64,000 bases of DNA from Botryllus schlosseri. Taxonomy: Eukaryota. The translations under genes were made by a program, and so were the position numbers. The stretch is from NCBI GenBank assembly GCA_051294905.1, contig CM119372.1, positions 40,178,001 through 40,242,000 on the forward strand, given 5' to 3'. Position 1 is the stretch's first letter. Each line of letters begins with the position of its first letter. Positions 21,831 to 56,851 of this stretch are shown here, piece after piece. The notes beneath the pieces are model-generated. The model was not told the DNA's origin, did not search any database, and saw only the letters and a program-made list of their open reading frames with translations.

Positions 21831-23561
21831 TAGAAATGATTTTATTTGTAATTCCGTTCTGTCTGTGAGGCCGCAGGAGATGAGGATGAATATGATGTTT
21901 CTAACTTCCGTTATAATATAAATACTGGTATGTCTATTTCCTGAAAAATGATCCATTTCATCGGATTCTGGTGGGTCCCCTATTGTGTTCCGAAGGCTGA
22001 AATATTTTTGGGGGTAATGTTGGGATACTCCTCTCGACTTGTAGCAATATGTAGTTACGCCTTTGACGCCGCAGGGTAGTGAAAATGATTTTTGGAATTC
22101 CGTTATAATATCCGTACTGGCATATCTATTTCCCAAAAATGATCCATTTTCATTGGATTCTGGTGGGTCCCCTATTGTGTTCCGAAGGTTGAAATATTTT
22201 TTAGAGTAATGTTTGGATACTCCTCTTGACTTTTAGCAATATGTAGTCACGCCTTTGACGCCGCAGGGTAGTGAATATGATTTTTCAAATTTCCGTTATA
22301 ATATCAGTGCGGGAATTTCTATTTCCTGATAAATGATCCATTTTCATTGGACTTTGGTGGGTAATCTATTGTCTATGGTCTGTGATTTTGATTGTTGCGT
22401 CATACTGTGCCTTTTTGGCTTCAGTGTGCCGATAACTCTTGAAAAGAGGCACCCGAAAAGTCTTTGAGTTTAATAAATATACTGCTACAATGGATGTTGT
22501 ATTGAAAGCTGTAATCTATTGTGTTCCGAAGATTTAAATATTTTTTTGGGTAATGTTGGGATAGTCATCTCGACTTGCAGCACGGTGTAGTTCTTCCTTT
22601 GAGACTGCAAGGGGGTAAATCTGATTTTTGAAATTTCTCGTTTCTTAACATCAAGAACTGGCAACTGGTTTTCCAGAGAATTTTGAGATCTGGCAACCCA
22701 TGTTCCAGTTATTCCTAAATTTTATATACGGAAAAAATACGTTATTTCCATGTACATTCACAATGATTCACCCGGTCATGATATTTCTGCTGATGTGCTA
22801 TTAGCATCACAGTGGTAAAATATAAATCTATTATTGAGCAAATATTTGACAAACACTAAACCACAGATCTCGGACCAGCGGAACTTATGCTAGTAAACGG
22901 TGGACCCGTTGGGACTGGTTGGGACTACGGAGTACGGATCAGGGGTGAGGCCACTGAGCAGAGGTGGCCAAGAATCCCAAGCTCCGGTCCAGGAGATCAG
23001 GACTGGAATAGGTGCAGGACTTAATCGATCGTTTTTATGTAGCTGGACTGGAATAAAAATGCCAAATACCTTGGTGTTTTACTGGATTCGGACATAACAT
23101 AACATCATTGGGTTATATTTTTCATCTGAACAAGTCACACACAATGTACAATGCAATAATACACAATGCGATATCATGAACAGGATACAGATAGGGCTAG
23201 GCTCATTTGGCAAGGACCTGATTAATCGGTTCGGCATATTAATATCGAATATTTCGGGCTTCGGCAAATATGCGTCTATCATTTTGCGCAAATATTTTAT
23301 CGCCAACTATCTTTCTGCAATTGCAGACTAGAACAGTGGTTCTCATCCTTTTTCACCTCGCGGACCGGTAAAATTTCAAAAAATATTTGACGGACTGGTG
23401 GACTTTCAGCAATTGAAATCAACCCAAAATGTAGAGTATGAAGCCGTTTTTTGCAAGTATATGGCACTGAGCTATATAAACACTGGAGTGCGCTACTCGC
23501 GATATTTACGTTGTCACTAGAAATAGTTGCATTGTGGGTAGTAGGCTGGACGATTTAGTAC

Positions 23562-33757: not shown

Positions 33758-36700
33758 GAGGAAGGTTGGTTCGATTGGTTTGAAATAAGGACAGATTTGT
33801 TTGAAATGAGGAGAGTCTCATGTTTGAAATGAGGATAGTCATGTCAGAAATAAGGATAGTCATGTTTGAAATGAGGATAGTCGCTATATTCACTATAAAG
33901 TCAGTTACAGTACCAGGCACGACTTCCCAGTGGTAACCCAGTCCGAACACATCCCAGACATGATGTAAGAACACGCCCCAGACACGATGTCCGATTGGCA
34001 GCACAGGCCGAACACACCCCAGACATGATGTTCAAACACGCGCCAGACACGATGTACCAGTGTCAATACAGGCCCAACACGCCCAAGACACCATATATGA
34101 AGGGCAACACAGACCGAACACGCCCCAGACACCATGTCCGAGTGTCAACTCAGATCCGAAAACAACCCGGACACCATGCTTGAATGGCCGAACATGCCCC
34201 AGACACCATGTCCGAATGGCAACACAGGCCGAACACACCCCAGATATGATGTCCAAACACACCCCAGACACGATGCCCGAGTATCAACACAGGCCGAACA
34301 CGCCCAAGACACCATGTCCGAATGGCAACACGGACCGAACACGCCCCAGACACGATGTCCGATTGGCAGCACAGGCCGAACACACCACAGACATGATGTC
34401 CAAATACGTCCCAGACACGAAGTCCGATTGGCAGCACAGGCCGAACACACCCCAGACATGATGTTCAAACACGCGCCAGACACGATGTACGAGTGTCGAT
34501 ACAGGCCTAACACGCCCAAGACACCATGTCTGAATGGCAACACAGACCGAACACGCCTCAGACACCATGTCTTAGTGTCAACTCAGATCCGAAAACCACC
34601 CAGACACCGTGTTTGAATGACCGAACATGCCCCAGACACGATGTCCGATTGGCAGCACAGGCCGAACACACCCCAGACACGATGTCCGATTGGAAGCACA
34701 GGCCGAACACACCCCTGACATAATGTCCAAACACGCGCAAGCCACGATGTCCGAGTGTCAATACTGGCCTAACACGCCCAAGACACCATGTGTGAATGAC
34801 AACACAGACCGAGCACGCCCGAGACACAATGTCCGAGTGTCAACTCTGTCCGAACACAACCCAGATACCATGTTTGAATGGCCGAACACGCTCCAGACAC
34901 GATGTCCGATTGGCAGCACAGGCCGAACACACCCCGGACATGTTGTCCAAACACGCCTCAGACAAGATGTCCGAGTATCAACACAGGCCAAACACGCCCA
35001 AGACACCATGTCCGAATGACAATACAGACCGAACACGCCCCAGACACGATATCCGAGTGTCAACTCAGTCCGAACACAACCCAAACACCATGTTTTAATG
35101 GCCGAACCCGCCCCAGACACGATATCCGATTGGAAGCACATGCCGAACACACCCCAGACATGATGTCCAAACACGCCCCAGACACGATGTCCAATTGCCA
35201 GCACAGGCCGAACACACCCCTGACATGATGTCCAAACACGCGCCAGACACGATGTCCGAGTGTCAACACAGGCCGACACGCCCCAGACATAATGTCTGAA
35301 TGGCAGCACATGCCGAACACAACCCAGACATGATGTCGGAACACGCCCAGAAACGATGTGCGATTGGCAACACAGTCCCAACCCCCCCCCCCAACCCCCA
35401 GACACGATGATAATAAGGTTGGTCATGTTTGAAATAAGGTCAGTGTCGTGTTTGAAATAAGGATAGTCATGTTAGAAATGAGGATAGTCATGTTTGATAT
35501 AAGGATAGTCATGTTTGAAATAAGGTTAGTCTCATGTTTCAAATGAGGATAGTCATGTTAGAAATGAGGATAGTCATGTTTGAAATAAGGATAGTCGCTA
35601 TATATTCACTATGAGGTCAGTTGTAGTACCAGGCACGATTTCCCAGTGGTAACCCAGTCCGAACACATCCCAGATCTTGTCCGAACACATCCCAGACATG
35701 ATGTCCGAACTCGCCGCAGACACAATGTCCGAGTGTCAACCCAGTCCGAACACAACCCAGACACCATGTTTGAATGGCAGATCTCGACCCAGACATGATA
35801 TCCGAACACGCGCCAGACACGATGTCCGAGTATCAACACAGGCCGAACACGCCCAAGACACCATGTCCGAATGACAACACAGACCGAACACGCCCCACAC
35901 ACGATATCTGATTGGCAACACAGGCCGAACACACCCCGGACATGATGTCCGAACACGCTCCAGACACGATGTCCGAGTGTCAACATAGGCCTAACACGCC
36001 CAAGACACCATGTCTGAATGGCAACACAGACCGAACACGCTCCAGACACGATGTCCGATGAGTGTCAACTCAGTGCGAACACAACCCAGACACCATGTTT
36101 GAATGGCCGATCTCACCCCGTTACATGATGTCCGACCACGCACCAGACACGCCGAAGACACCATGTCCGAATGACAACACAGACCCAACACGCTCCAGAC
36201 ACGATGTCCGATGAGTGTCAACTCAGTGCGAACACAACCCAGACACCATGTTTGAATGGCCGATCTCACCCCTGACATAATGTCCGACCACGCCCCAGAC
36301 ACGCCGAAGACACCATGTCCGAATGACAACACAGACCCAACACGCCCCAGACACGATGTCTGATTGGCAACACAGGCCGAACAAACCCCGGACATGATGT
36401 CGGAACACGATCCAGACACGATGTCCGAGTGTCAAGACAGGCCTAACACGCCCAAGACACCATGTCTGAATGGCAACACAGACCGAGCACGCTCCAGACA
36501 CAATGTCCGAGTGTCAACTCAGTCCGAACACAACCCAGATACCATGTTTGAATGGCCGAACACGCCCCAGACACGATGTCCGATAGGCAGCACAGGCCGA
36601 ACACACCCCAGACATGATGTCCAAACATGCCTCAGACACGATGTCCGAGTATCAACACAGGCCGAACACGCCCAAGACACCATGTCCGATAGGCAGCACA

Positions 36701-38530
36701 GGCCGAACACACCCTAGACATGATGTCCAAACACGCCTCAGACACGATGTCCGAGTATCAACACAGGCCGAACACGCCCAAGACACCATGTCCGAATGAA
36801 TAATTGACCAGGATAATGGGAATTTTATCGAGCGATCATTCGGAACAATGCCGATTTTCAGATTTCAGACTTGGACGGCTATATTTCTGGGTGGTTCCGT
36901 TGACCTGCCAGCTTTAAAATTGTATTTCCGGAATAGCTTTTGATCAAGATCGGTATTGTTAAATTGGGGTTTCAAAGTTAATGTATGAGTTCGGCCAATA
37001 CTAATGTCCCTTGCATTTATTGCGGGTCGCCTGTGTTTGCCGCTGGGCTCATTTGACAAGGACCGTATTTCAAACATGACCAACCTTGTTAACATCGTGT
37101 CTGGGGGGGGGGGTGTTGGGACTGTGTTGCCAATCGCACATCGTGACTGGGACGTGTTCGGCATGTGCTGCCATTCAGACATTATGTCTGGGGCGTGTCG
37201 GTCTGTGTTGACACTCGGACATCGTGTCTGCGGCGAGTTCGGACATCATGTCTGGGGCGTGTTCAGCCTGTGCTATTGCCATTCAAACATGGTGTCTGGG
37301 GCGTGTTCGGCCTGTGTTGCCATTCGGACATGGTGTCTTGGGCGTGTTCGGCCTGTGTTGATACTCGGACATCGTGTCTGAGGCGTGTTTGGACATCATG
37401 TCTGGAGTATGTTCGGCCTGTGCTGCCAATCGGACTTCGTGTCTGGGCCGTGTTCGGCCATTCAAACATGGTATCTGGGTTGTGTTCGGTCTGAGTTGAC
37501 ACTCCGATATCGTGTCTGGGGCGTGTTCGGTCTGTATTGTCATTCGGACATGGTGTCTAGGGCGTGTTCGGCCTGTGTTGATACTCGGACATCGTGTCTG
37601 GGGCATGTTTGGACATCATGTCTGGGGTGTGTTCGGCCTGTGCTGCCAATCGGACATCGTGTCTGGGGCATGTTCGGCCATTCAAACATGGTGTCTGGGT
37701 TGTTTTCGGATCTATGAGTTGACTCTAGGACATCGTGTCTGGGGAGTGTTCGGTCTGTGTTGCCATTCAGAATAGTGTCTTGGGCGTGTTAGGCCTGTAA
37801 TGACACTCGTACATCGTGTCTGGCGCGTGTTTGAACATCATGTCTGGGGTGTGTTCGGCCTGTGCTGCCAATCGGTCATCGTGTCTTGGGCGTGTTTGGA
37901 CATCATGTCTAGGGTGTGTTCGGCCTGTGTTGCCAATAATCGGACATCGTGTCTGGGGCGTGTTTGGACATCATGTCTGGGGTGTGCTCGGCCTGTGCTG
38001 CCAGTCGGAAATCTTGTCTGGGGCATGTTTGGCCATTCAAACATGGTGTCTGGGTTGTTTTCGGATCTGAGCTGACACTAGGACATCGTGTCTGGGGCCT
38101 GTTCGGTCTGTGTTGCCATTCTGACATGGTGTCTTGGGCGTGATGTTAGGCCTGTATTGACACTCGTACATCGTGTCTTGCACGTGTTTGAACATCATGT
38201 CTGGGGTGTGTTCGGCCTGTGCTGCTATTCGGACATCGTGTCTGGGGCGTGTTCGGACATCATGTCTGGGGTATGTTAGGACTGTGTTGACGCTAGGACA
38301 TCGTGTCTGGGGCGTGTTCGGACATCATGTCTGGGATGTATTCGGACTGGGTTACCACTGGGAAGTCGTGCCTGGTACTGCAACTGACTTTATAGTGAAT
38401 ATAGCGACTATCCTTATTTCAAACATGACTATCCTTATTTCTGACATGACTATCCTCATTTCAAACATGAGACTCTCCTCATTTCAAACAAATCTGTCCT
38501 TATTTCAAACCAATCGAACCAACCCTGTAG
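33758..38530. mobile_element. Foldback-type element (4,773 bp) made of inverted minisatellite arrays
   Basis: 8-bp TSD CAAAATAT (33750-33757/38531-38538). The inverted match starts 6 bp inside each end (GGTTGGTTCGATTGG). ccgaacacgccccagacacgatgt-type arrays run on + to ~36798 and inverted from ~37040. Confidence 0.85.
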
Positions 38531-39222
38531 CAAAATATTATCTTACTGTGACCATATTCTATCAATATGGTCTGGCTAGCCAAATTCTCTGGGCCAACAT
38601 AAACAAGCTGCGTTTGGTTTCAACGATCAATAATCTTGTCACTATATTCGAGGTATAATTGCACTCAAATACCAAATTTTGCTCCATTAATCAACATCAA
38701 GTTGAAAATGTCCATTCTTGCACCAACTTGTATAAAATCACGAATCAGTGTTCTACAGGTATGTATCTATATGACTTATATACATAGAAAATACAAGCAT
38801 AAATATTATGATATACCGTAGGTATAGGTACCGGTAATTCAGATGTTTGAAGCGACTTGGAAAACTAGATAATTATAGTGGTCCAATTTCACTAAATTAG
38901 AGCGAAATGCCAGCAATATAATTGTAATCTAATTCGGGAAAAACGGTTTAGCTCTAATTCTAGCCTGGAAAAGCTGAAACTTTTCTATACCGTAGTTGTC
39001 TATCGTAGAGATCACGTTAACCCTTTATATTATAATTTAAAAATCCTGAAAATTGATGATATTTACAGATTTGAAGTCGGCATTCTGATGCATAAGTTCT
39101 ACAATAACACCCTACCTGACATTTTCTCGAACTACTTTACACCTATCAGTGAACACCATTCTCATTTTACAAGAGGTTCTGTTATGAATCTGTATTTACC
39201 TAAGGCCCATCACAAAACCATT

Positions 39223-42200
39223 AGTAGTTAGTATGATCGGTCGTGACGGGCTATGGGCTCTTATGGGTGCGGTCGCACATCGTATGGAAAACTCGTGGTG
39301 GCACATCGTACTTTTTGACCCCCCTCTCGGTCGCACATCGTAATGCGTTCTTATGGGTGCGCTCGCACATCGTACTTTCAGGTATAGGCATCTGTCGCAT
39401 ATCGTATTGAAAACTCGTGTTGGCACATCGTACTTTTAGGTATAGGCATCTGTCGCACGTCGTACTTTCGCATGTCGTATTTCGCGTATAGGCAGTGGTG
39501 GTGATTCGCCATGTGTTCTTATGGGTGCGTCGGCATATCGTACTTTCGGGTATAGGCGGCGGCGGCACGGTGTTGAATATGTATCGGGTATGGTAAATAG
39601 TCACGTGATTGCTCCTTAGTTAATGTGTATATCCCAAATTATTATATATGACCGGTCCGAGTTGATCCTAGCGTTTACGGTGAGTGCGACTTCGATATAT
39701 CGTTATTCTTATGGGCGCGGCGATGATTCGTACTTTCGTTGATAGAATGCTAGCGGCATGTCATACTTTCAACAAAAAGGGTGTGAAATAGTTTGCTAAA
39801 TCTAGGAATCAGTCGCTTGGTAATTAGTTTACCACGGAGCCGGCGTAGACGGCGATTCCAATACCAACAATAGCCGCGTTCACATATTAACACTCCAAAT
39901 AGGTGTGAAATAGTTTGCAAACCCGGCGATCGCTGACAAGATAATGTCTCAGACATACGCGACTTGATGTTACAGGCATATCGATCGCTCACGCGGTGAA
40001 ATTCTCGTAAGCAGTTTGTCACAGAACTTGATTTCACTCGTAAAGATTTAATAAGTAACGAATAACAGACCGCCAGTGTCGGTAACTTGAATAGCGACAA
40101 ATTGTCACTTATTTCTACTCTAACCCTAATCCTTTGTGAAGTGTACGCTTATTCAAAAAAGTGCGACATAATTCTAAAATCCTACGATCGCTCACAAGAT
40201 AACACCTATAAGACATAACCATCTCTCGTGACTTGTGGTTACATACATCGCAATCGCTACAATGTAATATGTTGGTAGTTTGGTGCAGAACTGGATTTCA
40301 CGAGTCTGATACAATAAGAATATTACCTATTAAGTAATAAGCACCGAATAACAGAACCGTCGCAGACGGTGACTTGAATGTCCAAGATTTGATACTTTTC
40401 GCGATCGCTATATGTTTCACGTTGACTTTGGTTGCGTGATGCGAATCATGAGAATATTCAATCAATGTGTCAATTTGTCAACTTGAAATGAAACTCACTA
40501 CACAAACCAAGTTGATTCATATTTGAATGTGTTGATCCGGTACAACTCTAATCCTTTGAGAAATCCATTTACCGCGATCAGTTGATTCGAACGTAACTTG
40601 AATATTGCTGACTCCAACTTCAGTCGCATCGAATTATTCACACATTCCACGCTGCTGTTTTCACACCTATAGAATCAATACCAACTAACTAAACAAGAAT
40701 CAAGAGTCACAAGTATGTGCATTATACAGTTATTATCTTTATAAACATGAATTTAAACTCTTAACAAAAACACACAACTAATCATTCGCCAGCTCTAACA
40801 TTATCAAAAAAATTCCAGTATTGTTGATTGAAAATCCTTGAACCTGTATTATTAAGAGTATTATAGCACGACGTCGGAATCCACTCGCGAGGTGTACTAA
40901 AGGTAAATTCAGATAATCCAGAATGAAATATTTTGACTTTGACATAGTGTGAATTGAAATAGGATTGACAAACATGAGTAACAACTTTCAACCCGGTCAT
41001 ATTTAGAGATTATACGCACATTGATTCGAAACAAGTAATGAAACATTACAACTCTATTCGCGACCTGTCTTTACGTTTGTCAAAGAGAGTTTCAGAAATA
41101 TTATCACTATGACATCTCAACATTTTAACATCTTGCCATCAACAAAAGAGTAAAATACAAAAACCTTGTCAAGTCAATCCGTTTGTAACTCACCGAACCA
41201 AAGCAAAAAGTGTCCATACGAAAAGTAGACAAGACTACGCAAGTAATCACTACAACCCACAAACATAGCAAGTTCGGTTTTAGGCATATGCCACCAACTC
41301 GTCTTTTTTGTTCAACTGTAAAAGTCGTTACTATGCCGCAAGACCAAGAAATTACTATGCGGTATATTTTGTAAGACAAAAGTAATTACTTCTCGGTGTC
41401 GGCGACTTGAGATTAACATAATATATTTGAGTATACGACATTTGAAAGTATGGCCATCGTAGTTTCTTACAATCGAACGCAGGTGTTATATCGAAAATTA
41501 TCGTGATGTAAACATAAGGATTGTCACATCGATTTAACATATGAGATTTTGTAATGGTCTATCATGACTTGATTATTAAATTATTCGCGTTAATTAGACC
41601 CGGCGTTGTTGTTGTAAAGGTTATTATGACAGCAACAAACTTTTCAGTACCGTTGTTATTAACATATTGAGTTGTAAAACTATGCGTGTCTGAAATGTTC
41701 TTGAATGGAAAATTATTCCACCTTGGTACATATCACCCTGCGTATCGCGGATATCAGAAAATATTTTACAAATGTAATTGTCTCCACTAACCGAGACTAA
41801 AGATGAAACAACAATTTCCTTTGTTAAACAATAACCGGTACAATACTTTATCATCGTAAACAGCAGTGAGAATTGAAACACTTTCGCACATTATCCGGTG
41901 TCAAGATATCGCACTAGGTGAATTGACATACCGCCGCTTGATTAATACCTAATCCATTCGCGCCATTTCACATACTTTGATCATTACAAAAGTAAATTGG
42001 AATATGTTTGCTAGATGCATTCAATTCAGTTAGAAATGTCTGGTACACAACAATCGTAATATCAAGGAAGTACTTGCTACGCTGTAATTCACTTAACGTG
42101 TTTTGTATTGTTGTTCATTTGTAGTATTGATTGTTTTTGAACCCCCAAATAATAATTCCCGACATGAAACCAAACCGCCGAAAGTCGTTACCATCACAAC

Positions 42201-45200
42201 GAAACAATCTGTACAATGTTTGCCAAATGTATCCTATAGTTAGGTGTACTAGAATTATTTGTCTAACACATACACCGACAATGCAACCGAAAATTTTTCC
42301 GTTATCATTCGCTAAAGTAAATGTCGTCACAATACTCATCAAGCTGTCATCTGTAAATCAAGATTACATCCAACTTGTAACTGTATCGTTTAACTACTGG
42401 GTTGCATCAGTTTGCTATTTTTGTCATTTAGTGACTGCTGAACATACCAAACGATACACATTCACTTACGAAATACTGTGTTGATCGTAATTTCAATCAT
42501 CGTGATAATCGAAGTACATTTGTTTCGAGTTCATAACAACCGACTACTTCTCTATGACATGACGAATTTTTGAAAAGTTATGCTTAGAAGATTGGTTGCA
42601 TATCGCGAAAAATAATATACCACTCATATTGATACTGTTACTCCATTGATCGATATTTTCAAACGAGTAAAATTTATTACTTGAGTTTCTCCGCTTAATG
42701 TAAATGAAAACTCAGCCGTCTTTTAACATCACAAAGACATTGATAAAAAGTAGGCAATCAAACACAACACTTTGTACGACACTAATTATTGTTCCACACA
42801 TCTCATTTCATACTAAGTGTATACGAAAGATATTCACGACACATGAAAATATTCCCATGCTACAAACCTGTACAATGATTGGTGGTGCTTTCAAACTGTT
42901 TCGATATCACAAGAACTTTATTGTCTGAACGGGTGTTCATGTATCTTAATAATCAACACAGAACTAGTACTAACAGAAACATCAGAGTTGTTTACACAAA
43001 AGTTTGTATGTGTACAGTATGCGAATACCATGTGTAAGTCCAGCACAATTGCGGTATCCATCCGAGTTTAGTTAACACAAATTTATTACAACGGAACCAC
43101 GTAAACTTTCGTGAAAGAAAAGCATACTCACTTCCAGAGGGTTATGTCAATACCATAGCAGTAAATCAGCTACTCCAACAAGAAAGTACATATGTTTTCT
43201 AGTCACGGTCCTTCCATCTTTCACATTGATCAATCTACTTTGCTAACGAAAAGTGCTGAGTCATCACATGATTGCCCTCACAACAAAACAGCTAGTAGAT
43301 ATTATCATACAAAAATATTCCTAACCCTTTGAGCACCTGTGACAAATCATACAACGAATATGTTTTGTGGGTCGAATTGTTGTTCAGTGTCAAGTCTACC
43401 TGTTGAAACGTACATTAAAACAACACAGTCACAATTCAATTAAAACCACGAATCTATTTTCATTTCGTCACATACAGAAAAATAAATTTTCTTTCCCAAC
43501 ACATACTTGTAACCAATCGCTTTCATTAAACACACAACTTCATAAAAGTATTTACTTTCTACAACATAGACATTCCGATGTAGTCAAGAAATATTTTTAT
43601 TAATCAAAATCATCGATTTCTGTTTACGGCGTTAGTGTGTGCATGTCATATATGTGGGATCCGTATTAAAATGGACACGACGCGACTGAATGTAAGGAGA
43701 TAGAAGTCTATCGCATAGATTTACATGTGGTCTTCGCTACGGTTTCAAAAAACTAATCATCGCTTTTGCATTGATCGAGACCGAGCAAGTTAGTTAATGG
43801 CCATGATTGTGTTTGTCATATGCGAATGATAGGGTTACTGTCAAATCTACATACAACAACCTTCTGGCACTCATAATAGCAATTTCATTCTCTCCTTTCG
43901 TAATTGTAGACTCACGACAAGTATATTGTACAACTCGACAGCTACGTTTAACAACACCAACGACACTAAACATACGATACCTACCCAAGTAAAATTACCA
44001 TTTTCACCTAGAGGTCAGCCGTTACCTGAGTAAAAATACCATTATTCTTTGGAGATTTATCGTTTAATCAGAGTAACAAAACATTTTCACTTGGGGGTCC
44101 ATCGTTTCCCAGAGTAACAAGCCCCCTTTCCTTTGGGAATCTATTTTGTTCCGTGGGTAACAAATCTTTTTCACTTGGAAATATCTTTTTTCCTCGGGTA
44201 ACAAACCTTTTTCGCTTGGAAACATATTTTTTCCTTGAGCAACAGACCATTTTTACTTGGAAATATAATTTTTCCTTGAGCAACAGACCATTTTTACTTG
44301 GAAATATAATTTTTCCTTGAGCAACAGACCATTTTCACTTGGAAATATATTTTTTCCCTGAGCAACAAACCATTTCACTCGGCGGGTCGTCGTTTACCTG
44401 AGTAAAATATCATTTTTCTTTGGAGATCTGGCGTTTACCCATTGTAACAATACATTTTCACTTGGAAATCTGTCGTTTACCTGAGTACCAATACCGTTTT
44501 CACTTGGAAATCTATCTTTTCCCTGGGTAACAATACCCTTTTCGTTTTTGAAAACTGACAACCACACCGGTCAATTTGATATTTTTTGTATATTGTTACA
44601 ACAGACAGCGACAAAATATACACCAACAACGACTCCGATACATGTGTCTAATCAAATATTCACTTGCTCTGATGCATCCCATCAAAATCATTGGTTACTC
44701 ACATACAATAACAATGTGCTGTTGTACATCGACATGTATGTTTTCGGAATTGGTGAATAAAGGGGTTTCCGATATGTCCGTGATGTCCGGGTTTGTGCTT
44801 TGGATTTTCCAGAGTCAAAATGTCTGAATAAAACACCTCCTTGACGATGGTTGGTATGTGGATAATGGTGTTCGGAAAACGGATGAATTTATGTTCCCCA
44901 TCGCGCTGACAGCATCGGGTTACTTGTGAGTTTCCTCGGGTCAGTTTACTATATTGTGTCTTTACTGGTCAATACATGTCGCTCCAGTCAGCTGAAACCG
45001 GATCACCAATATGAGAAAGTGTGGGGGCCGGATCCGGATATTCACTCATGACCCAACGACCGATATTCAAGTAAACATGTTACAGACCGTGTTTTGTCTC
45101 CATGAAAAATACCAATGCATACACCATCACATCAAGTACGTCACGATTGTTCACAAGTATTCGCGTAAACCAGGTGTACATACAATGTGTCGGTGTACAA

Positions 45201-48200
45201 ACATCACGGAAAACAAATTCATGTTCTCAAGTCTCATCATGCGACGACTCTGGACATTCAATGTGGGCATAGATGACACACGATATGATACAATGGATAG
45301 TGCATTATGCATACCGATATATTCTCAGTCAAATATGCGAACCATACACAACCATATACCCTGATTTTCGCTGAATATCCACAACACCAACAAATCTGTA
45401 CATTTCTTTTCCCTTGACCTCGATGATAGAGTTGTCATCCCAATGTACCAATCGAGTGTATGGTTCATCAGGTGTAAAATCCAAATCAAATGTCACCAAG
45501 GTATCGTTTTTCATTTTCAATATTTCCACCGCTGCATCTTGTCTGTGTCGTAAAACCACGGTGTGGGGCCAGAGGAATCTGTGGAACGTTACGCATAGTC
45601 CCATATTCACTCGTGGATATAGTCAGGTAACGACAACGTTTTCTCAATGGTCTGTGTGGGTACACCGTTTCAATACGTAGCTGGATCAACTAGACCAAAA
45701 GTTTCCAACCGCGGTTTATGTTGACCTGTAGAATTACGAGACATCGCCCTCTTGTGGCGTGATTAACACGAAATCAGTCTTCGACTCGCAGAGATTCACC
45801 TTGGATTACATTATCAAATCGTAATCGAACTCGAGATTCACACACACACAGAGTCCATGTTTACGATTTCAATGCGGAGTCACTGCTCACGATGTTTATC
45901 TGTAGTCGTTATGTGGGAGTAGCGACATCTGACATATTCATCGCGTGAAAGATTGATACGATGGTGATCGACAAATACATTATGTCGGGTGAAACACTGC
46001 GGTCTCGGCGAAAAAGTTAGCAGGTTATGACCAACAATGCGCAGGGATTGAGTGAGTTACGCAACACGATTATATCGAGGTCTTGATCACGATGCAAGTC
46101 TACCTGAGAATCCGAACAATCTTGCAAAATCAAGATGTGAACCCGTGAAAGGGTTGCACTCGTGTGAGATTGATTTTTCACAAGTTGGGTGGAGGTCGGT
46201 TCATACTAAGACCATGTTACGTCCAAATATGGCTGCTTACCTGTCTCCAAGTCATCTATGCCCATATTGAATGTACAGAGTCGTCGCATGATGAGACTTG
46301 AGAACATGAATTTGTTTTCCGTGATGTTTGTACACCGACACCTTGTATGTACACCTGGTTTACGCGAATACTTGTGAACAATCGTGACGTACTTGATGTG
46401 ATGGTGTATGCATTGGTATTTTTCATGGAGACAAAACACGGTCTGTAACATGTTTACTTGAATATCGGTCGTTGGGTCATGAGTGAATATCCGGATCCGG
46501 CCCCCACACTTTCTCATATTGGTGATCCGGTTTCAGCTGACTGGAGCGACATGTATTGACCAGTAAAGACACAATATAGTAAACTGACCCGAGGAAACTC
46601 ACAAGTAACCCGATGCTGTCAGCGCGATGGGGAACATAAATTCATCCGTTTTCCGAACACCATTATCCACATACCAACCATCGTCAAGGAGGTGTTTTAT
46701 TCAGACATTTTGACTCTGGAAAATCCAAAGCACAAACCCGGACATCACGGACATATCGGAAACCCCTTTATTCACCAATTCCGAAAACATACATGTCGAT
46801 GTACAACAGCACATTGTTATTGTATGTGAGTAACCAATGATTTTGATGGGATGCATCAGAGCAAGTGAATATTTGATTAGACACATGTATCGGAGTCGTT
46901 GTTGGTGTATATTTTGTCGCTGTCTGTTGTAACAATATACAAAAAATATCAAATTGACCGGTGTGGTTGTCAGTTTTCAAAAACGAAAAGGGTATTGTTA
47001 CCCAGGGAAAAGATAGATTTCCAAGTGAAAACGGTATTGGTACTCAGGTAAACGACAGATTTCCAAGTGAAAATGTATTGTTACAATGGGTAAACGCCAG
47101 ATCTCCAAAGAAAAATGATATTTTACTCAGGTAAACGACGACCCGCCGAGTGAAATGGTTTGTTGCTCAGGGAAAAAATATATTTCCAAGTGAAAATGGT
47201 CTGTTGCTCAAGGAAAAATTATATTTCCAAGTAAAAATGGTCTGTTGCTCAAGGAAAAATTATATTTCCAAGTAAAAATGGTCTGTTGCTCAAGGAAAAA
47301 ATATGTTTCCAAGCGAAAAAGGTTTGTTACCCGAGGAAAAAAGATATTTCCAAGTGAAAAAGATTTGTTACCCACGGAACAAAATAGATTCCCAAAGGAA
47401 AGGGGGCTTGTTACTCTGGGAAACGATGGACCCCCAAGTGAAAATGTTTTGTTACTCTGATTAAACGATAAATCTCCAAAGAATAATGGTATTTTTACTC
47501 AGGTAACGGCTGACCTCTAGGTGAAAATGGTAATTTTACTTGGGTAGGTATCGTATGTTTAGTGTCGTTGGTGTTGTTAAACGTAGCTGTCGAGTTGTAC
47601 AATATACTTGTCGTGAGTCTACAATTACGAAAGGAGAGAATGAAATTGCTATTATGAGTGCCAGAAGGTTGTTGTATGTAGATTTGACAGTAACCCTATC
47701 ATTCGCATATGACAAACACAATCATGGCCATTAACTAACTTGCTCGGTCTCGATCAATGCAAAAGCGATGATTAGTTTTTTGAAACCGTAGCGAAGACCA
47801 CATGTAAATCTATGCGATAGACTTCTATCTCCTTACATTCAGTCGCGTCGTGTCCATTTTAATACGGATCCCACATATATGACATGCACACACTAACGCC
47901 GTAAACAGAAATCGATGATTTTGATTAATAAAAATATTTCTTGACTACATCGGAATGTCTATGTTGTAGAAAGTAAATACTTTTATGAAGTTGTGTGTTT
48001 AATGAAAGCGATTGGTTACAAGTATGTGTTGGGAAAGAAAATTTATTTTTCTGTATGTGACGAAATGAAAATAGATTCGTGGTTTTAATTGAATTGTGAC
48101 TGTGTTGTTTTAATGTACGTTTCAACAGGTAGACTTGACACTGAACAACAATTCGACCCACAAAACATATTCGTTGTATGATTTGTCACAGGTGCTCAAA

Positions 48201-51200
48201 GGGTTAGGAATATTTTTGTATGATAATATCTACTAGCTGTTTTGTTGTGAGGGCAATCATGTGATGACTCAGCACTTTTCGTTAGCAAAGTAGATTGATC
48301 AATGTGAAAGATGGAAGGACCGTGACTAGAAAACATATGTACTTTCTTGTTGGAGTAGCTGATTTACTGCTATGGTATTGACATAACCCTCTGGAAGTGA
48401 GTATGCTTTTCTTTCACGAAAGTTTACGTGGTTCCGTTGTAATAAATTTGTGTTAACTAAACTCGGATGGATACCGCAATTGTGCTGGACTTACACATGG
48501 TATTCGCATACTGTACACATACAAACTTTTGTGTAAACAACTCTGATGTTTCTGTTAGTACTAGTTCTGTGTTGATTATTAAGATACATGAACACCCGTT
48601 CAGACAATAAAGTTCTTGTGATATCGAAACAGTTTGAAAGCACCACCAATCATTGTACAGGTTTGTAGCATGGGAATATTTTCATGTGTCGTGAATATCT
48701 TTCGTATACACTTAGTATGAAATGAGATGTGTGGAACAATAATTAGTGTCGTACAAAGTGTTGTGTTTGATTGCCTACTTTTTATCAATGTCTTTGTGAT
48801 GTTAAAAGACGGCTGAGTTTTCATTTACATTAAGCGGAGAAACTCAAGTAATAAATTTTACTCGTTTGAAAATATCGATCAATGGAGTAACAGTATCAAT
48901 ATGAGTGGTATATTATTTTTCGCGATATGCAACCAATCTTCTAAGCATAACTTTTCAAAAATTCGTCATGTCATAGAGAAGTAGTCGGTTGTTATGAACT
49001 CGAAACAAATGTACTTCGATTATCACGATGATTGAAATTACGATCAACACAGTATTTCGTAAGTGAATGTGTATCGTTTGGTATGTTCAGCAGTCACTAA
49101 ATGACAAAAATAGCAAACTGATGCAACCCAGTAGTTAAACGATACAGTTACAAGTTGGATGTAATCTTGATTTACAGATGACAGCTTGATGAGTATTGTG
49201 ACGACATTTACTTTAGCGAATGATAACGGAAAAATTTTCGGTTGCATTGTCGGTGTATGTGTTAGACGAATAATTCTAGTACACCTAACTATAGGATACA
49301 TTTGGCAAACATTGTACAGATTGTTTCGTTGTGATGGTAACGACTTTCGGCGGTTTGGTTTCATGTCGGGAATTATTATTTGGGGGTTCAAAAACAATCA
49401 ATACTACAAATGAACAACAATACAAAACACGTTAAGTGAATTACAGCGTAGCAAGTACTTCCTTGATATTACGATTGTTGTGTACCAGCCATTTCTAACT
49501 GAATTGAATGCATCTAGCAAACATATTCCAATTTACTTTTGTAATGATCAAAGTATGTGAAATGGCGCGAATGGATTAGGTATTAATCAAGCGGCGGTAT
49601 GTCAATTCACCTAGTGCGATATCTTGACACCGGATAATGTGCGAAAGTGTTTCAATTCTCACTGCTGTTTACGATGATAAAGTATTGTACCGGTTATTGT
49701 TTAACAAAGGAAATTGTTGTTTCATCTTTAGTCTCGGTTAGTGGAGACAATTACATTTGTAAAATATTTTCTGATATCCGCGATACGCAGGGTGATATGT
49801 ACCAAGGTGGAATAATTTTCCATTCAAGAACATTTCAGACACGCATAGTTTTACAACTCAATATGTTAATAACAACGGTACTGAAAAGTTTGTTGCTGTC
49901 ATAATAACCTTTACAACAACAACGCCGGGTCTAATTAACGCGAATAATTTAATAATCAAGTCATGATAGACCATTACAAAATCTCATATGTTAAATCGAT
50001 GTGACAATCCTTATGTTTACATCACGATAATTTTCGATATAACACCTGCGTTCGATTGTAAGAAACTACGATGGCCATACTTTCAAATGTCGTATACTCA
50101 AATATATTATGTTAATCTCAAGTCGCCGACACCGAGAAGTAATTACTTTTGTCTTACAAAATATACCGCATAGTAATTTCTTGGTCTTGCGGCATAGTAA
50201 CGACTTTTACAGTTGAACAAAAAAGACGAGTTGGTGGCATATGCCTAAAACCGAACTTGCTATGTTTGTGGGTTGTAGTGATTACTTGCGTAGTCTTGTC
50301 TACTTTTCGTATGGACACTTTTTGCTTTGGTTCGGTGAGTTACAAACGGATTGACTTGACAAGGTTTTTGTATTTTACTCTTTTGTTGATGGCAAGATGT
50401 TAAAATGTTGAGATGTCATAGTGATAATATTTCTGAAACTCTCTTTGACAAACGTAAAGACAGGTCGCGAATAGAGTTGTAATGTTTCATTACTTGTTTC
50501 GAATCAATGTGCGTATAATCTCTAAATATGACCGGGTTGAAAGTTGTTACTCATGTTTGTCAATCCTATTTCAATTCACACTATGTCAAAGTCAAAATAT
50601 TTCATTCTGGATTATCTGAATTTACCTTTAGTACACCTCGCGAGTGGATTCCGACGTCGTGCTATAATACTCTTAATAATACAGGTTCAAGGATTTTCAA
50701 TCAACAATACTGGAATTTTTTTGATAATGTTAGAGCTGGCGAATGATTAGTTGTGTGTTTTTGTTAAGAGTTTAAATTCATGTTTATAAAGATAATAACT
50801 GTATAATGCACATACTTGTGACTCTTGATTCTTGTTTAGTTAGTTGGTATTGATTCTATAGGTGTGAAAACAGCAGCGTGGAATGTGTGAATAATTCGAT
50901 GCGACTGAAGTTGGAGTCAGCAATATTCAAGTTACGTTCGAATCAACTGATCGCGGTAAATGGATTTCTCAAAGGATTAGAGTTGTACCGGATCAACACA
51001 TTCAAATATGAATCAACTTGGTTTGTGTAGTGAGTTTCATTTCAAGTTGACAAATTGACACATTGATTGAATATTCTCATGATTCGCATCACGCAACCAA
51101 AGTCAACGTGAAACATATAGCGATCGCGAAAAGTATCAAATCTTGGACATTCAAGTCACCGTCTGCGACGGTTCTGTTATTCGGTGCTTATTACTTAATA

Positions 51201-52305
51201 GGTAATATTCTTATTGTATCAGACTCGTGAAATCCAGTTCTGCACCAAACTACCAACATATTACATTGTAGCGATTGCGATGTATGTAACCACAAGTCAC
51301 GAGAGATGGTTATGTCTTATAGGTGTTATCTTGTGAGCGATCGTAGGATTTTAGAATTATGTCGCACTTTTTTGAATAAGCGTACACTTCACAAAGGATT
51401 AGGGTTAGAGTAGAAATAAGTGACAATTTGTCGCTATTCAAGTTACCGACACTGGCGGTCTGTTATTCGTTACTTATTAAATCTTTACGAGTGAAATCAA
51501 GTTCTGTGACAAACTGCTTACGAGAATTTCACCGCGTGAGCGATCGATATGCCTGTAACATCAAGTCGCGTATGTCTGAGACATTATCTTGTCAGCGATC
51601 GCCGGGTTTGCAAACTATTTCACACCTATTTGGAGTGTTAATATGTGAACGCGGCTATTGTTGGTATTGGAATCGCCGTCTACGCCGGCTCCGTGGTAAA
51701 CTAATTACCAAGCGACTGATTCCTAGATTTAGCAAACTATTTCACACCCTTTTTGTTGAAAGTATGACATGCCGCTAGCATTCTATCAACGAAAGTACGA
51801 ATCATCGCCGCGCCCATAAGAATAACGATATATCGAAGTCGCACTCACCGTAAACGCTAGGATCAACTCGGACCGGTCATATATAATAATTTGGGATATA
51901 CACATTAACTAAGGAGCAATCACGTGACTATTTACCATACCCGATACATATTCAACACCGTGCCGCCGCCGCCTATACCCGAAAGTACGATATGCCGACG
52001 CACCCATAAGAACACATGGCGAATCACCACCACTGCCTATACGCGAAATACGACATGCGAAAGTACGACGTGCGACAGATGCCTATACCTAAAAGTACGA
52101 TGTGCCAACACGAGTTTTCAATACGATATGCGACAGATGCCTATACCTGAAAGTACGATGTGCGAGCGCACCCATAAGAACGCATTACGATGTGCGACCG
52201 AGAGGGGGGTCAAAAAGTACGATGTGCCACCACGAGTTTTCCATACGATGTGCGACCGCACCCATAAGAGCCCATAGCCCGTCACGACCGATCATACTAA
52301 CTACT
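39223..52305. mobile_element. Non-autonomous Polinton/Maverick-type element forming a 13,083-bp palindrome (arms 39223-45277 and 46251-52305; spacer 45278-46250)
   Basis: Termini AGTAGTTAGT.../...ACTAACTACT and a perfect 6-bp TSD ACCATT (39217-39222/52306-52311). All mirrored ORF coordinates sum to 91528. Confidence 0.85.
44010..44545 (+). repeat. Degenerate ~43-bp minisatellite in the left arm (mirrored at ~46985-47520)
   Basis: ttttcacttggaaatat..ttttcc.tgag(c/t)aaca.acca units, about 12 copies. Confidence 0.85.
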
Positions 52306-54958
52306 ACCATTGCCTATCAAGGTCCTCTAATATGGAACTCCATTCCTCGCATATTAGGAGCAATTCTTTATATGTATTTAAAACCATGTATCGTGCCTTC
52401 CTTAATGAGTCATACAAAAGCTAAAATGTATTTTCAGTGGTAACTAGTACCGGTCAACATATCTTGTTTGCTTCAGACCAGTACACTTTATATTCTTTTC
52501 CTCCGTTTTTCCTAACATGTGCTCTTACATTTATTCTGTCAATCTTACAATTCACTGTTGCAGTACGATGTATGCAATTTATAGCCAATCTACTTCGATC
52601 AGCTGCAGCAGACTCGATGATCAACAGATCACTTCGCTGCAGCTTCATCTTGCAACCGTAAAACATAATGGCCAATCCTATGAACTGTAAATCGTATTCG
52701 TACACATCTCATTTACTTTGAAATTGACACTGTAACCATTTTTTTGTATGTGTCCAGTTTATGCTACTTTGTTGTCTGTTTTGTTATTTTGCGATGATGA
52801 ATAAAAAAAATTCTCTCTCTCTCTCTACACCTGTTTGCAGAAAGTCAAACAGCTCTAGGCGTCATATACTACAGGCAATTCGAAATACCCCATAAGCTAT
52901 ATGCTACTGCGTATATACCTTTAACCCGCTACCTCAGTCAGTCACAATTCCTATATATTTACGGCATTTACCATACAGAAAGAGCGAACTATGCCTGGCT
53001 GCGACCTGTTGCGCGTCAAATCTTTGTCCGGCGCGATGACGTAAAATTTGAATCGCCGAAATATTCTAGAAGTCACGCATCGATAATCATATTCCTAAAC
53101 GTACAACATCTCACTTATTTAGTTATTCTCTGAATAAAACTATTAGCCATACTCGTTGAACATGCGAGATTACCGAAAGAGCGAATATATATATAATGAA
53201 GATCATATATATCAGAAGAAAACAAAACTGATCGACCTTAGAGCAACAACACGAATATACAACACCGGTGACATCCTCACGCAATAAAACGAAGGGAGAA
53301 CATTGTTTTCTAATGGATAGAACGAAGCTACCGCATGAGATCGAACAAAACCGGATAGGAATTCATCGTGATTGAATGTACCGACAAAGTCATCCTTTCT
53401 ACGTATTTTAGTCATACCAGCGAGAGATAGAAAATTTGCATTATTAGGTTAACTACCGGATATAACGAAGCCTAATGCATGAGATGGAACAACACCGAGT
53501 ATGAATTTATTCTGATTGAATATAACCACAATACCATCCTACTACGTATTTTAGACATTCCCTCGACACTTAGAAAATCAGAACCTAATCGAGATGATCC
53601 CGGATGATCCTTTTACGGTTTTGTGTTTGCTGGGAATAGATGCATGGGTCCTACCCTGAATATATTCAGATGTAGCTAGAATTGCCTAATTCACACTGAA
53701 ATTGAGGCTATGTTGGTTACAGCAATCTGTGCACTGTGGGAGTTCATAATAAATATTTATTTTATCGGATCAATACGGCACAAGATACAATCTAGATGAC
53801 GTACGTGTATTTGATCATAATTACACCTATAGCTACCCATATATGTGTGTACATGAAGCTTGGCTCGTTTTGCACTTTCATGAAACCAGAAATAAGATTA
53901 GATTCAAAACTGACTGGACACGTGAACATTTCACACGCAGTTTTTCTGCCTACGATACTTGCCTACCCTACTAGATGAAGCACTCCAACCTGGCTTTAGA
54001 TCAACCATTTCTGTGATCACACGAAATAACGGGTTGTGCTGCCTCGTACCAAAATACTGAACTTTCCTTTACAGAAACAACAGCTTTAGTTATAAGAAAC
54101 GCAAGGTTTTGAATGATTGAATGATATTAAAATGACATGAAAAAATAAAGACAGAATTAATTAATTATTGGTAATTGACTTCACGTCGCCCTCGACGTAA
54201 TTGAGGGTGATCTGAAAATAAAAAGTGGGATAAGTTAGGGCTTAGTATCTGCGAACGAGGTATTATAAACATACCGTTTCATATTTCAGTTCCAGTGTAA
54301 TTGAATTAACACATTTACTCCCGTCCTACGGCTACGGCGGTGCCGACGACGTGTGTGTCGTAGATGGGGGTTTGGCGAGTTCACACTGTTCACGATGTAT
54401 GAATTAAAATTCGAGAAATTTTTGACTCAACACATTGATCGACATACCTTGGAGTTGCGTCGACCTCCCTCCCTTCTTTGTTTTCTTTCGGTAGGGGAGG
54501 GAGGTCATAGACGATCGGAGTCCTGAACAATATAGATAATTGTTTGTAAAATGATAATGACATTGGCGTCATATTCATTGGGATACCTTTTGACCGTTGC
54601 ATCTTCCGGTGCTGGTTCTTCCACAGCCAAATCAATTTGATCTTTTTCAACCTCTTCAAAAATGAAGGATATCTTATCCATAATTATTTACTGAAGCTTA
54701 TTATCTGTAAAGATACCAAAAACGGTTAGTACAGAATTACAATAACGAAAATTCTACGGCATACGAAGAAAGTGGCCTCACCTCATTCAGTGGGTTAGCC
54801 GGTGTCTTCCGTGGGTTTGAAGTACGAGTTGGGTATGTAAACATTCTTTCTGGCGACGCAGGATTGGCTTTACAGCTTAACGATGGTCGATTCCAGAACC
54901 TTTGAATGAAAAAGAAAAGAGAACAGCCACGAGCAAGTATGGAATATAGCGATAGTTA

Positions 54959-56851
54959 CTATGTGTGTACTAATGCATCTTTAGCAAGAGGCAAAGAATC
55001 ATCATCCTCACAGTCAGTACTCATGTCTACATATCCTCGGTATCGTTTTCCATCCCAAAAAACCTGTTTGCGGATCGACATTTCATCCATCATTATGGAG
55101 CATATTACAGGATTTGCTGATGCCTCTACTTTTCCTCTGATAGCAGAAAAGGCAATACCAGTAAAGCCAGGCTCAGCGGGAAGTTTTCCATACCAGTGTC
55201 TTATCACACTTGGATGGGGAAGAGCAAGTTGAAAATTCTGACGCACAAAATCGTATGCCTTAGCGGAATAATACTGAGGCGTCATTGCAAATGATTGCAG
55301 TTCCTGAGAATATTTGACTCCTCTTTCACCAGCTTGTAGCTTCATACGTTGCAAGAGCTCACTTGGTAGACTACTGAATTTTTGTGACATTACCTCTACA
55401 CACGAATCGCTTATCAAATTGTTCTTCTTAAGAGATGCAATGACCTCATCCAGAGTCTTCACTTTTTTTGCAGACGGTATGTTCTCATTCTGGCTGCATG
55501 CAACCTCTTTTCAATATCTGCCATCCTACGGCGTTGCTGTTGAACGACTTTTCGAGGAGACGTATGCGCACAGTAGCTGTGGTCTTGAAGAACTACTTCA
55601 GGTTCAGCGGATTGTGCTTCATAATGCCGTTTCTTATCTGGAACTGCAGAAGGTCTCACTCGTCGGGTGTTCGAAGCCTGAAATTTGCGAATTTTACGTT
55701 AACTAGGGCTAAAATAAAGGTATAGTAATTAGAACTCAAACTTTATAAATATATAGTCACTGTCTAGTGTTTACCGTACCTTTGTCCTCATATATTTTGA
55801 AAAATTCAGAAATCTTGTCGGCACCGCCGTCCTTAAACCAATTCTCCCGTCAACACGTTTAATATCACTTTCTGAAAAATGATCAGGGCAAATGACCGAG
55901 TATCTTGCTGGCACCCAGTCTTTTCTTCTAATACATTCTATCCATCTTTCTTTCAGGGAATCATTGGTAGGAAAGCCCCGTTGTACAGAACATTGTATCA
56001 GTTCACAAGTAATTCTATGATACAAAGCACACCAAATTGACCATTCTTTGTTATGAACGACGATTAAAGTAGCAGGAACATATGTGAAATTATCTTGTTC
56101 GATTTAAAATATCTGTTACTTTCTACCCCAGAAGGATAGACTATTAGGTAACCTTTTAAATCTAAAGCCAAAGGTGATCCTAAAAACATCTTACGAGACA
56201 AATCGAACGTCTCGCACGCACGAAGCTATAATGAACTCGACCACGGAGTTAGCAATTTGAACTGTAGTGTGGGCATCTGGCACCAGAAATCAACTATGCT
56301 GGGCAAAACCGTGTGGCCGTTAATTATACCTTTCCTTCTAGTCCTACCTCCAACCTTCACGACAATTTTAAGCAAGGATTGAGTACTAAGCTAGTTATTG
56401 GCTGAACTGCCCATACAGAATACAAACAGTGACCTGGTCATGCTATTACAGGTATACTGATGAACTGACATGTTGCTGGGACTGATGATATAGTCTGCTC
56501 TGATCATACCAACATCCATATACTTGTGACAAAATGTTCTGGTATAATGACACTTTAACATGGGCCTATTCATTATTGCTGTGGCTTATCTGGACATTGA
56601 TTGACTGTGATGGTCAGGAGATATTAAAAATAGAAACAGATTCTTCAAATATAGTCTTGCTGCCCTGCTTATTCTGCCATTCACTCACCGGTGAAATGTT
56701 CTTGGATGCCGACGCTTTACCAAAGACTCTTCATCGCTACTACCATCGCTATAACTTCTCATATATATGACTCCGTGGATATCTTTTTCTGCCTTTTACT
56801 GCACTCATAGACGCAACAATCACTACCATCAAAACGAGATGTCTTCGTCAT
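54959..56851 (-). pseudogene. THAP9/P-type transposase pseudogene of copy B
   Basis: Same exon layout as copy A, but the exon-2 acceptor AG is lost (caacggggctttcc). There is a frameshift near 55462, and the sequence is truncated after PLAKDALV. Confidence 0.85.

Follow-up and report, generated by a model that had tools for sequence, protein, structure and literature searches.

The 64,000-nucleotide stretch of Botryllus schlosseri DNA analysed here (the window; assembly GCA_051294905.1, contig CM119372.1, positions 40,178,001 to 40,242,000 of the forward strand) contains, at positions 39223 to 52305, a palindromic element with the ends of a Polinton/Maverick transposon. Scanning for inverted repeats revealed two segments of 6,056 nt, 39222-45277 and 46251-52306, which are 100% complementary and have 973 nt between them. 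The outermost base of each repeat end is part of the target site duplication (TSD), so that the element proper comprises 13,083 bp: a left arm of 6,055 bp on the plus strand (39223-45277), a central loop of 973 bp (45278-46250) that is its only single-copy part, and a right arm of the same size (46251-52305, minus strand) that is the exact reverse complement of the left one. Together, the arms make up 92.6% of the element. Its termini, read directly from the letters, are AGTAGTTAGT...ACTAACTACT, i.e. AGTAGT..ACTACT, a terminal short tandem repeat of the (AGT)2//(ACT)2 type. A perfect 6-bp TSD, ACCATT, flanks the element at 39217-39222 and 52306-52311. An earlier reading of this DNA from the letters alone (the original prediction) had described arms, spacer and TSD in the same way, and all three were confirmed.

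The element interrupts a host repeat of unverified type, whose left (38996-39222) and right (52306-52705) parts lie on the plus strand and which occurs at least 30 more times in the genome at 89-99% identity. After deletion of one ACCATT the reading frame of the flanks joins again, with ..PKAHHKTI before the joint and AYQGPLIWNSIP behind it, as had been predicted. In support of this, locus L043 contains an uninterrupted paralogue of the flanking repeat, in which the left-flank homologue continues directly into the right-flank homologue. The two flank alignments overlap by exactly 6 bases, the 6-mer is present once, as ACGATT, and the right flank is 95.8% identical to the paralogue over 401 aligned columns (400 bp of query). 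By this alignment the paralogue is the empty-site equivalent of the insertion, and because it carries the 6-mer once, we regard the unit as cleanly inserted at a single site, of which 6 bp were duplicated. The suggestion that the interrupted frame belongs to a long interspersed nuclear element found no confirmation, as the open reading frames (ORFs) of the flanks have no match in Pfam.

Most of each arm is unique sequence. Its tandem content is limited to a 515-bp array of a 41-mer (44022-44536, about 12 copies, mirrored in the right arm according to the tandem-repeat and inverted-repeat scans) and to a subterminal array of ~200 bp. The latter (39273-39479 in the left arm, plus strand) is composed of eight sites for the 12-mer TCGCACATCGTA, each with no more than 2 mismatches and all in one orientation, which start 15-32 nt apart and all lie inside the first 260 bp of the element end; a period of 32 nt was detected in it by the tandem-repeat scan. 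Both element ends carry these eight sites. The whole window holds 45 sites compared with 4.65 expected, and the 29 located elsewhere belong mostly to a neighbouring tandem-repeat element. The subterminal array is a candidate binding site array for a protein.

An element of the same genome, C15, shares the ends of the palindrome and is referred to here as the helper. It is 14,319 bp long and has inverted ends of its own, 743 bp at 95.3% identity. Both ends of the palindrome match those of C15 (L039:501-1019 and L040:4833-4315) with 90% identity over the first ~524 bp only (39223-39746 on the plus strand in the left arm, starting with AGTAGT). The helper thus does not share an entire 6-kb end, as had been envisaged for a full Polinton: beyond the common ~524 bp, the arm has one weak match of 144 bp (71.5%) to the left end of the helper, and the remaining arm is not recognisably related to it. 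The helper's integrase is recognised by Pfam through an rve core (E 1.7e-16) and a chromodomain (E 2.3e-9). Its ATPase has weak Pfam matches to A32 and AAA and 367 public relatives, many of them with PF04665 and one named FtsK of an adintovirus. A polymerase-like region is covered by two long frames that overlap, one of 591 and one of 634 amino acids (aa). For its second half, 25 of 30 language-model look-alikes fall into clusters of PF03175, the protein-primed polymerase, with a likeness of up to 0.95. An ORF of 432 aa has a language-model likeness of 0.98 to clusters with a double-jelly-roll (DJR) capsid domain, which is annotated on 14-30% of their members. Pfam recognised neither the polymerase nor the capsid ORF, the polymerase ORFs also found nothing in PHROGs or among PDB sequences, and the PF03175 profile matched the genome at one sub-threshold place only, elsewhere than in C15. 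Motifs of a polymerase can be recognised in the C15 ORF. Because the names protein-primed polymerase (pPolB) and capsid are based on such motifs and on language-model look-alikes, both are used here as leads. At least 74 genomic matches to the pPolB-like protein were scored; 55 of them have an open frame of >1,000 aa, and 52 of these 55 are free of stops inside the match. Further helper-type ends were found with the terminal 1 kb of the helper as query, one of them on C10 at a distance of 10 kb from a pPolB match. The predicted Polinton/Maverick nature of the ends is thus borne out by the terminal motif, the 6-bp TSD and the likeness to an integrase/pPolB-like element over ~524 bp, and the concern that the genome might hold no such element with these termini is answered by C15.

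The palindrome itself has no Polinton core gene that could be detected by tblastn of all helper ORFs of at least 80 aa. Polymerase ORFs gave no match, the rve integrase a single one at chance level (E 0.98), and no gene for a capsid protein, packaging ATPase or protease was detected in the element in this way. The longest stop-to-stop ORF of the element measures 132 aa, the arms are devoid of a conserved long ORF, and scans for Rfam families and tRNAs yielded nothing. Work by Barreat and Katzourakis (2021) on vertebrate Mavericks describes ends with an (AGT)2//(ACT)2 or (AG)3//(CT)3 motif and a perfect 6-bp TSD, terminal inverted repeats (TIRs) of 46-1,447 bp, intact lengths of 12.7-24.6 kb that spread by ~10% and appear constrained in size, and a mostly low copy number with a median of 8 per genome (PMC8097293). 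The element agrees with these Mavericks in its end motif, TSD and inverted ends, and its 13,083 bp fall inside their size range. It differs from them in lacking core genes, in an inverted repeat of 6,055 bp (93% of the element) compared with 46-1,447 bp, in belonging to a family of at least 150 copies compared with a median of 8, and in having an orphan ORF of its own. Its repeat is four times as long as the largest TIR reported and thus outside the Polinton range (tens to ~1,400 bp); as it also lacks the core genes, the element fails as an autonomous Polinton.

Searches of the 495-Mb assembly holding the window revealed a large family. For the terminal 600 bp, a first look yielded 2,612 candidates, of which 40 were scored; these gave 48 matches, the majority in plus/minus pairs 8-24 kb apart. 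A 2-kb arm segment gave 78 matches, many of them as plus/minus pairs ~9.2 kb apart, which is the spacing expected of the palindrome. The loop was found full-length at least 41 times at 92-100% identity (40 scored of 1,082 candidates), and a search with the ORF described below indicated at least 150 loops of the family (150 scored of 1,199 candidates). For comparison we selected ten paired loci, two more with the closest loops, and the two ends of a pair on C4. Ten of the 11 other loci with a family interior contain DNA homologous to the arm and/or loop of the window element, and eight of the 11 have long inverted arms that are >99% alike (C14, C1, C6, C13, C9a, C9b, C7a and C2sib). The arm/loop junctions of the window element recur in C1 and in C13, which additionally lacks ~1 kb. 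C7b is a rearranged or deleted form of 7.8 kb and C11 a fragment. Clean copies are 12.5-13.8 kb long. Both ends could be located by the 24-base terminus in seven of 12 end-pairs, and all seven copies have perfect and mutually different 6-bp TSDs (ACCATT, TACGTA, CCCGGC, GGGGTG, TACGTC, GATGAC and AACGTT), so that the proposed search for copies with other TSDs was successful. The arm-loop-arm design with homologous arms recurs in many copies that differ by 2-29%, and the palindrome is therefore an inherited design of the family. Two features expected of a non-autonomous derivative were found, namely ends homologous to an autonomous element of the same genome and a multitude of copies that occupy different sites and have TSDs of their own. 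The element thus bears the end and integration signature of a Polinton and has the features of a non-autonomous derivative, not of an autonomous Polinton.

Some of these loci are unusual. The C14 copy (C14:21448628-21464112; L003, L004, L021, L022), which is closest to the window element at the tips, sits exactly on the axis of a palindrome without spacer: its flanks form an inverted repeat of 757 bp at 99.7%, and its TSD TACGTA is itself palindromic. This position may hint that the family inserts preferentially at the centres of palindromes. On C4 (13105075-13165301; L042, L043), where only the ends were compared, two family ends ~60 kb apart have a perfect common TSD, TACGTC; either nested insertions have swollen a single copy to this size, or the pair delimits a composite that is very large. 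The ends of C8 (8233816-8252444; L023, L024) are 18.6 kb apart and its inverted matches are just 72-88% identical, and it is therefore not a simple palindrome. As it holds arm segments of different subfamilies, some in direct orientation, C8 is a rearranged or compound locus.

Within a copy, the two arms are almost indistinguishable. Arm-to-arm identity is 100% in the window element, 99.97% in C2sib (2 mismatches in 5,745 bp), 99.88-99.95% in C1, 99.75-100% in C9b, 99.5-99.9% in C6, 99.4-99.97% in C7a, 99.4-99.8% in C13, 99.3-99.6% in C14 and 99.2-99.9% in C9a. Between copies, the same arm segments are just 71-98% identical. Thus, with 99.2-100% within a copy as opposed to 71-98% between copies, the arms evolve in concert. 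Consistent with this, the nearest sequence of an arm was its own partner in three of three inverted pairs for one arm segment and in seven of eight for another. C8 was the sole exception, and the other non-matching rows were arms whose partner lay outside the set. The closest relative of the window arm changes along its length: it is C14 at the tip (98.6%), C9a in segment 1129-3048 (92.8%), C6 further inward (86%) and C2sib near the centre (93-97%). These alignments therefore depict the family as a mosaic, and each mosaic is mirrored exactly in both arms. Nested insertions confined to one arm were found in C14 (2 kb) and in C9a, whose arms bear insertions of 2 kb and 1.2 kb, respectively, at different positions.

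The loop carries an ORF of 91 aa on the minus strand (45332-45604; stop codon 45329-45331, stop-to-stop frame 45329-45622), to which tblastn of the helper ORFs had drawn our attention. The statement of the original prediction that the element has no core genes holds, and it overlooked this conserved frame. The ORF starts at a conserved methionine and is open without indels in the closer copies C1, C2sib and C11 as well as in a subfamily (C6, C9a and C9b) whose DNA is just 69-72% identical. Across seven sequences its frame has no stop, compared with 7-32 stops in the other five frames. Ratios of nonsynonymous to synonymous substitutions (dN/dS, Nei-Gojobori) were 0.17-0.54; in the comparison of frames across the seven sequences they were 0.19-0.47 in the frame of the ORF as opposed to 0.27-8.9 in the others. 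The antisense frame rc+1, which has matching third positions, is similarly low (0.27-0.50), yet it contains 7 stops. Differences between subfamilies accumulate by codon position in the order 3>1>2, e.g. 25/14/34 for positions 1, 2 and 3. Arm ORFs serving as controls had dN/dS values of 0.42-1.5 and usually stops in diverged copies; they gain stops there or show no coding signature. Among genomic copies of the loop ORF, 149 of 150 scored (of 1,199 candidates) are free of stops, all at ≥89% aa identity. These substitution patterns argue that the loop ORF is under purifying selection. A stretch of 132 nt inside it (45425-45556) is invariant in nucleotide sequence between window-type copies and C1, and its flanks differ by ~7-10%; this could be due to chance, to a constraint of great strength or to a cis element that overlaps the frame.

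As far as sequence searches can tell, the loop ORF is an orphan with no detectable homologue outside the family. Pfam returned a sub-threshold match to TriTu only (E 0.11), PHROGs nothing below E 0.025, and PDB sequences a best E of 0.88. A set of 1.84 billion representative proteins yielded a single true cluster and a spurious WD40 match. Five further versions of 90-93 aa, down to 62% identity and all on contigs of ~1 kb, came from a set of 5.8 billion proteins, in which near-length forms only were sought. We also considered that the ORF might be a fragment of the packaging ATPase, to which it showed a likeness in the window-type subfamily only (tblastn E 0.003; BLASTP E 2e-5, 28% over 79 aa). 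Profile tests of this idea failed, with a probability of 0.4% in hhalign against 30 Polinton ATPases and an E of 0.59 in hmmsearch, and it was rejected.

Public sequencing data were consulted for the same stretch. Contigs from a DNA run cover it completely at very high summed depth, and one of them, possibly from the same sample as the assembly, spans the junction between loop and right arm (joint 45277/46245, opposite strands). None of the public runs listed as containing words of the loop is an RNA run. In a single-cell RNA run, of which ~3% was read, 130 reads matched, most of them on one arm stretch of ~250 bp and 64 of them partially, and the depth over the loop ORF did not exceed 1.9. 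A second RNA run with a different organism label had no reads on the stretch. Contigs with 35-72% of the sampled words of the loop occur under four organism labels (public runs X1-X20), and the family or close relatives may thus not be confined to one species label.

The best explanation for the window unit is that it is one young insertion of an abundant non-autonomous family, and this family is probably a satellite mobilised in trans by a Polinton/Maverick virus-like element. A satellite family parasitising Polinton enzymes had been the fallback of the original prediction and fits the inherited multi-copy design. In the mechanism that we propose, integrase and protein-primed polymerase of the helper would act in trans on the shared ends. 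During strand-displacement replication, the displaced single strand could fold back into a hairpin of 6 kb with a loop of 1 kb, so that the 'racket' or panhandle of the models for Polintons and adenoviruses would be taken to an extreme. In the Polinton model after Kapitonov and Jurka, as it is outlined in PMC4196379, pairing of the inverted ends folds a single strand into a racket, which the protein-primed polymerase then turns into double-stranded DNA. Mismatches in the stem of such a hairpin might then be corrected, or the second arm might be copied from the first, so that the arms would remain identical through repeated rounds of transposition while lineages drift apart. Taken alone, this resetting of the hairpin has in our view an even chance of being correct. 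The loop protein may serve the propagation of the satellite itself.

The length of the element might have a related cause. A unit of ~7 kb, when doubled, would reach 12.5-13.8 kb, near the 14.3 kb of the helper, and such a length would be selected for if a helper-dependent genome were packaged and the size of the capsid limited it. We offer this idea about packaging size tentatively, with less than an even chance of being correct. A comparable behaviour is described for helper-dependent adenovirus genomes below ~27 kb, which multimerise or rearrange up to a packageable size (PMC3717718). Such gutted vectors resemble the element in being helper-dependent, in retaining terminal cis elements only and in the enlargement of undersized genomes, just as the ~7-kb unit is doubled to about helper size. 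They differ in that they arise in the laboratory or within an infection, whereas the family is germline-integrated, long-lived and diversified and has its own conserved ORF, and its packaging is a proposed step.

Several points weigh against the proposal of a trans-mobilised satellite. Trans-mobilisation, the hairpin intermediate and packaging are all deduced from the assembled sequence. The recognisably helper-like part of the 6,055-bp arm is limited to the ~524 bp and the weak 144-bp match, and the argument from helper size is built on one fully delimited helper copy. The contrast between the loop ORF (dN/dS 0.3-0.4) and the arm pseudo-ORFs (typically 0.5-0.9) is moderate. The loop ORF is complete in seven of 12 family loci examined; it is missing in C14, C8, C13 and C7b and truncated in C7a. 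It has neither a homologue nor a fold in Pfam, PHROGs or PDB, and an AlphaFold2 model of its product from 11 sequences, with a mean pLDDT (predicted local distance difference test) of 37.6, is too poor to use. The perfect arm identity of this copy is known from the assembly alone. Finally, chromosomal gene conversion between the arms would explain their identity equally well.

The last point leads to the strongest rival, which retains family and helper and assigns no replicative role to the palindrome. The element would move by integrase-mediated cut-and-paste or copy-and-paste of a double-stranded form, and its arms would be kept alike by intrachromosomal gene conversion, as in large genomic palindromes. 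The high arm identity in every well-formed copy (99.2-100%), even in those old enough to have acquired insertions in one arm (C14, C9a and C9b), speaks for this view, and concerted evolution by itself is silent on where homogenisation happens. On the other hand, one-sided nested insertions of 1.2-3 kb persist, being neither erased nor copied across, and the mosaics are always symmetrical in both arms, which would call for very efficient conversion after each exchange; neither observation is decisive. Copies with one-sided insertions are only marginally more arm-diverged than clean ones, which decides nothing. We consider gene conversion a serious alternative with somewhat less than an even chance. 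It touches the homogenisation step only and is compatible with mobilisation of the family in trans by a Polinton.

A more far-reaching version of the satellite proposal holds that the palindromes are true virus satellites, whose self-annealed 6-kb hairpin is replicated by the protein-primed polymerase of the helper, with both arms reset to one sequence in each cycle. They would be packaged in helper capsids because doubling brings their genome to helper size, and their loop protein would divert or interfere with the helper. We judge this version unlikely. If true, it would represent an animal counterpart of phage satellites and of the parasitism seen in virophages, with hundreds of copies fixed in the germline. 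On the main reading, the family in itself is a gene-poor Maverick parasite that is more numerous than its helper, that devotes 93% of itself to a perfect hairpin, that has kept this hairpin homogeneous across up to ~29% sequence divergence, and that has retained one private protein. To our knowledge, Mavericks/Polintons are usually of low copy number, and nearly all known copies are either autonomous or decayed. The literature searched, which did not extend to Repbase or subscription journals, contained no account of a non-autonomous Polinton of palindromic or foldback form, and none of a palindromic Polinton satellite with an ORF. We know of no observation of the single-strand 'racket', an intermediate that has long been proposed. 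Should the arms be reset in the course of replication, the family would provide a natural read-out of this structure in self-synthesising transposons. Should the length of the satellite track that of the helper, this would indicate indirectly that passage through capsids still occurs in these elements. With the loop ORF, the family offers a concrete candidate for a factor in the interaction of satellite and helper in an animal.

The original prediction had favoured a single copy-back or snap-back accident, in which template switching produced a defective Polinton genome that integrated once. Linear replicons with protein-primed replication are known to give rise to palindromic derivatives, and the 100% identical arms of this copy would fit a fresh product. 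However, many loci have the same design, in which arms, loop and junctions are homologous, although they differ by 2-29% and have their own TSDs; the interior of the arm is not recognisably helper sequence, and at least 150 loops across subfamilies point to a heritable lineage and not to a sporadic by-product. Copy-back as a one-off event is thus very improbable; at most, it might have been the ancient founding event of the family.

Just as improbable is a classical foldback (FB) transposon that belongs to one of the cut-and-paste superfamilies (FB, Galileo/P-like) and is Polinton-like at its tips only. Long inverted arms that make up most of the element would agree with it, and so would the presence in the window of P-transposase-like ORFs (24865-26067 and 54962-55510) and of a tandem-repeat foldback element just upstream. 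Against it, over 524 bp the ends share 90% identity with the inverted ends of an element bearing an integrase and a pPolB-like ORF, which goes beyond a likeness of tips. P and FB elements have TSDs of 7-9 bp, whereas those of the family measure 6 bp in seven of seven copies. Moreover, the arms are mostly unique, with a tandem array in 515 of 6,055 bp. Foldback-structured transposons such as Drosophila FB and Galileo (PMC3573991) share with the element the dominance of long inverted arms, a (nearly) non-coding content and a high copy number; they differ in arms built of tandem subrepeats, as opposed to mostly unique arms with TSD and ends of the Polinton type, and the partner of the element is an integrase/pPolB-like element and not a P-type or other DDE transposase. 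Hardly credible at all is an assembly artefact, i.e. a fold-back chimera or arms homogenised by polishing: arms that match perfectly over all 6,055 bp might result from a fold-back read or from polishing of the consensus, but a chimera would not place different halves of one host repeat at the two flanks so that they rejoin exactly across a 6-bp duplication, the same architecture exists at many loci with small arm differences that survived polishing, and the public DNA contig mentioned above spans the loop/right-arm junction.

Other features of the window concern its neighbouring sequences. At 33764-38524, ~700 bp upstream of the palindrome, lies a separate foldback-like element of ~4.8 kb, which is GC-rich (50-55%) and has strong, opposite strand skew on its halves. 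Tandem repeats of 41, 65, 106 and 220 bp are arranged in it in inverted orientation, with arm matches of 80-93%. This element matches the classical FB-type architecture, unlike the palindrome with its arms of unique sequence. The two P-transposase-like ORFs (24865-26067 and 54962-55510, both on the minus strand) carry helix-turn-helix and RNase-H-like domains of the P-element transposase, with E values from 1.8e-16 to 2.6e-48 in four matches, and because of these domains P-like transposons can be regarded as present in the window. Finally, an open frame of 459 aa on the minus strand (20524-21900) has a ubiquitin C-terminal hydrolase (UCH) domain (E 2.3e-12) and is probably an exon-rich portion of a host gene or a captured fragment.

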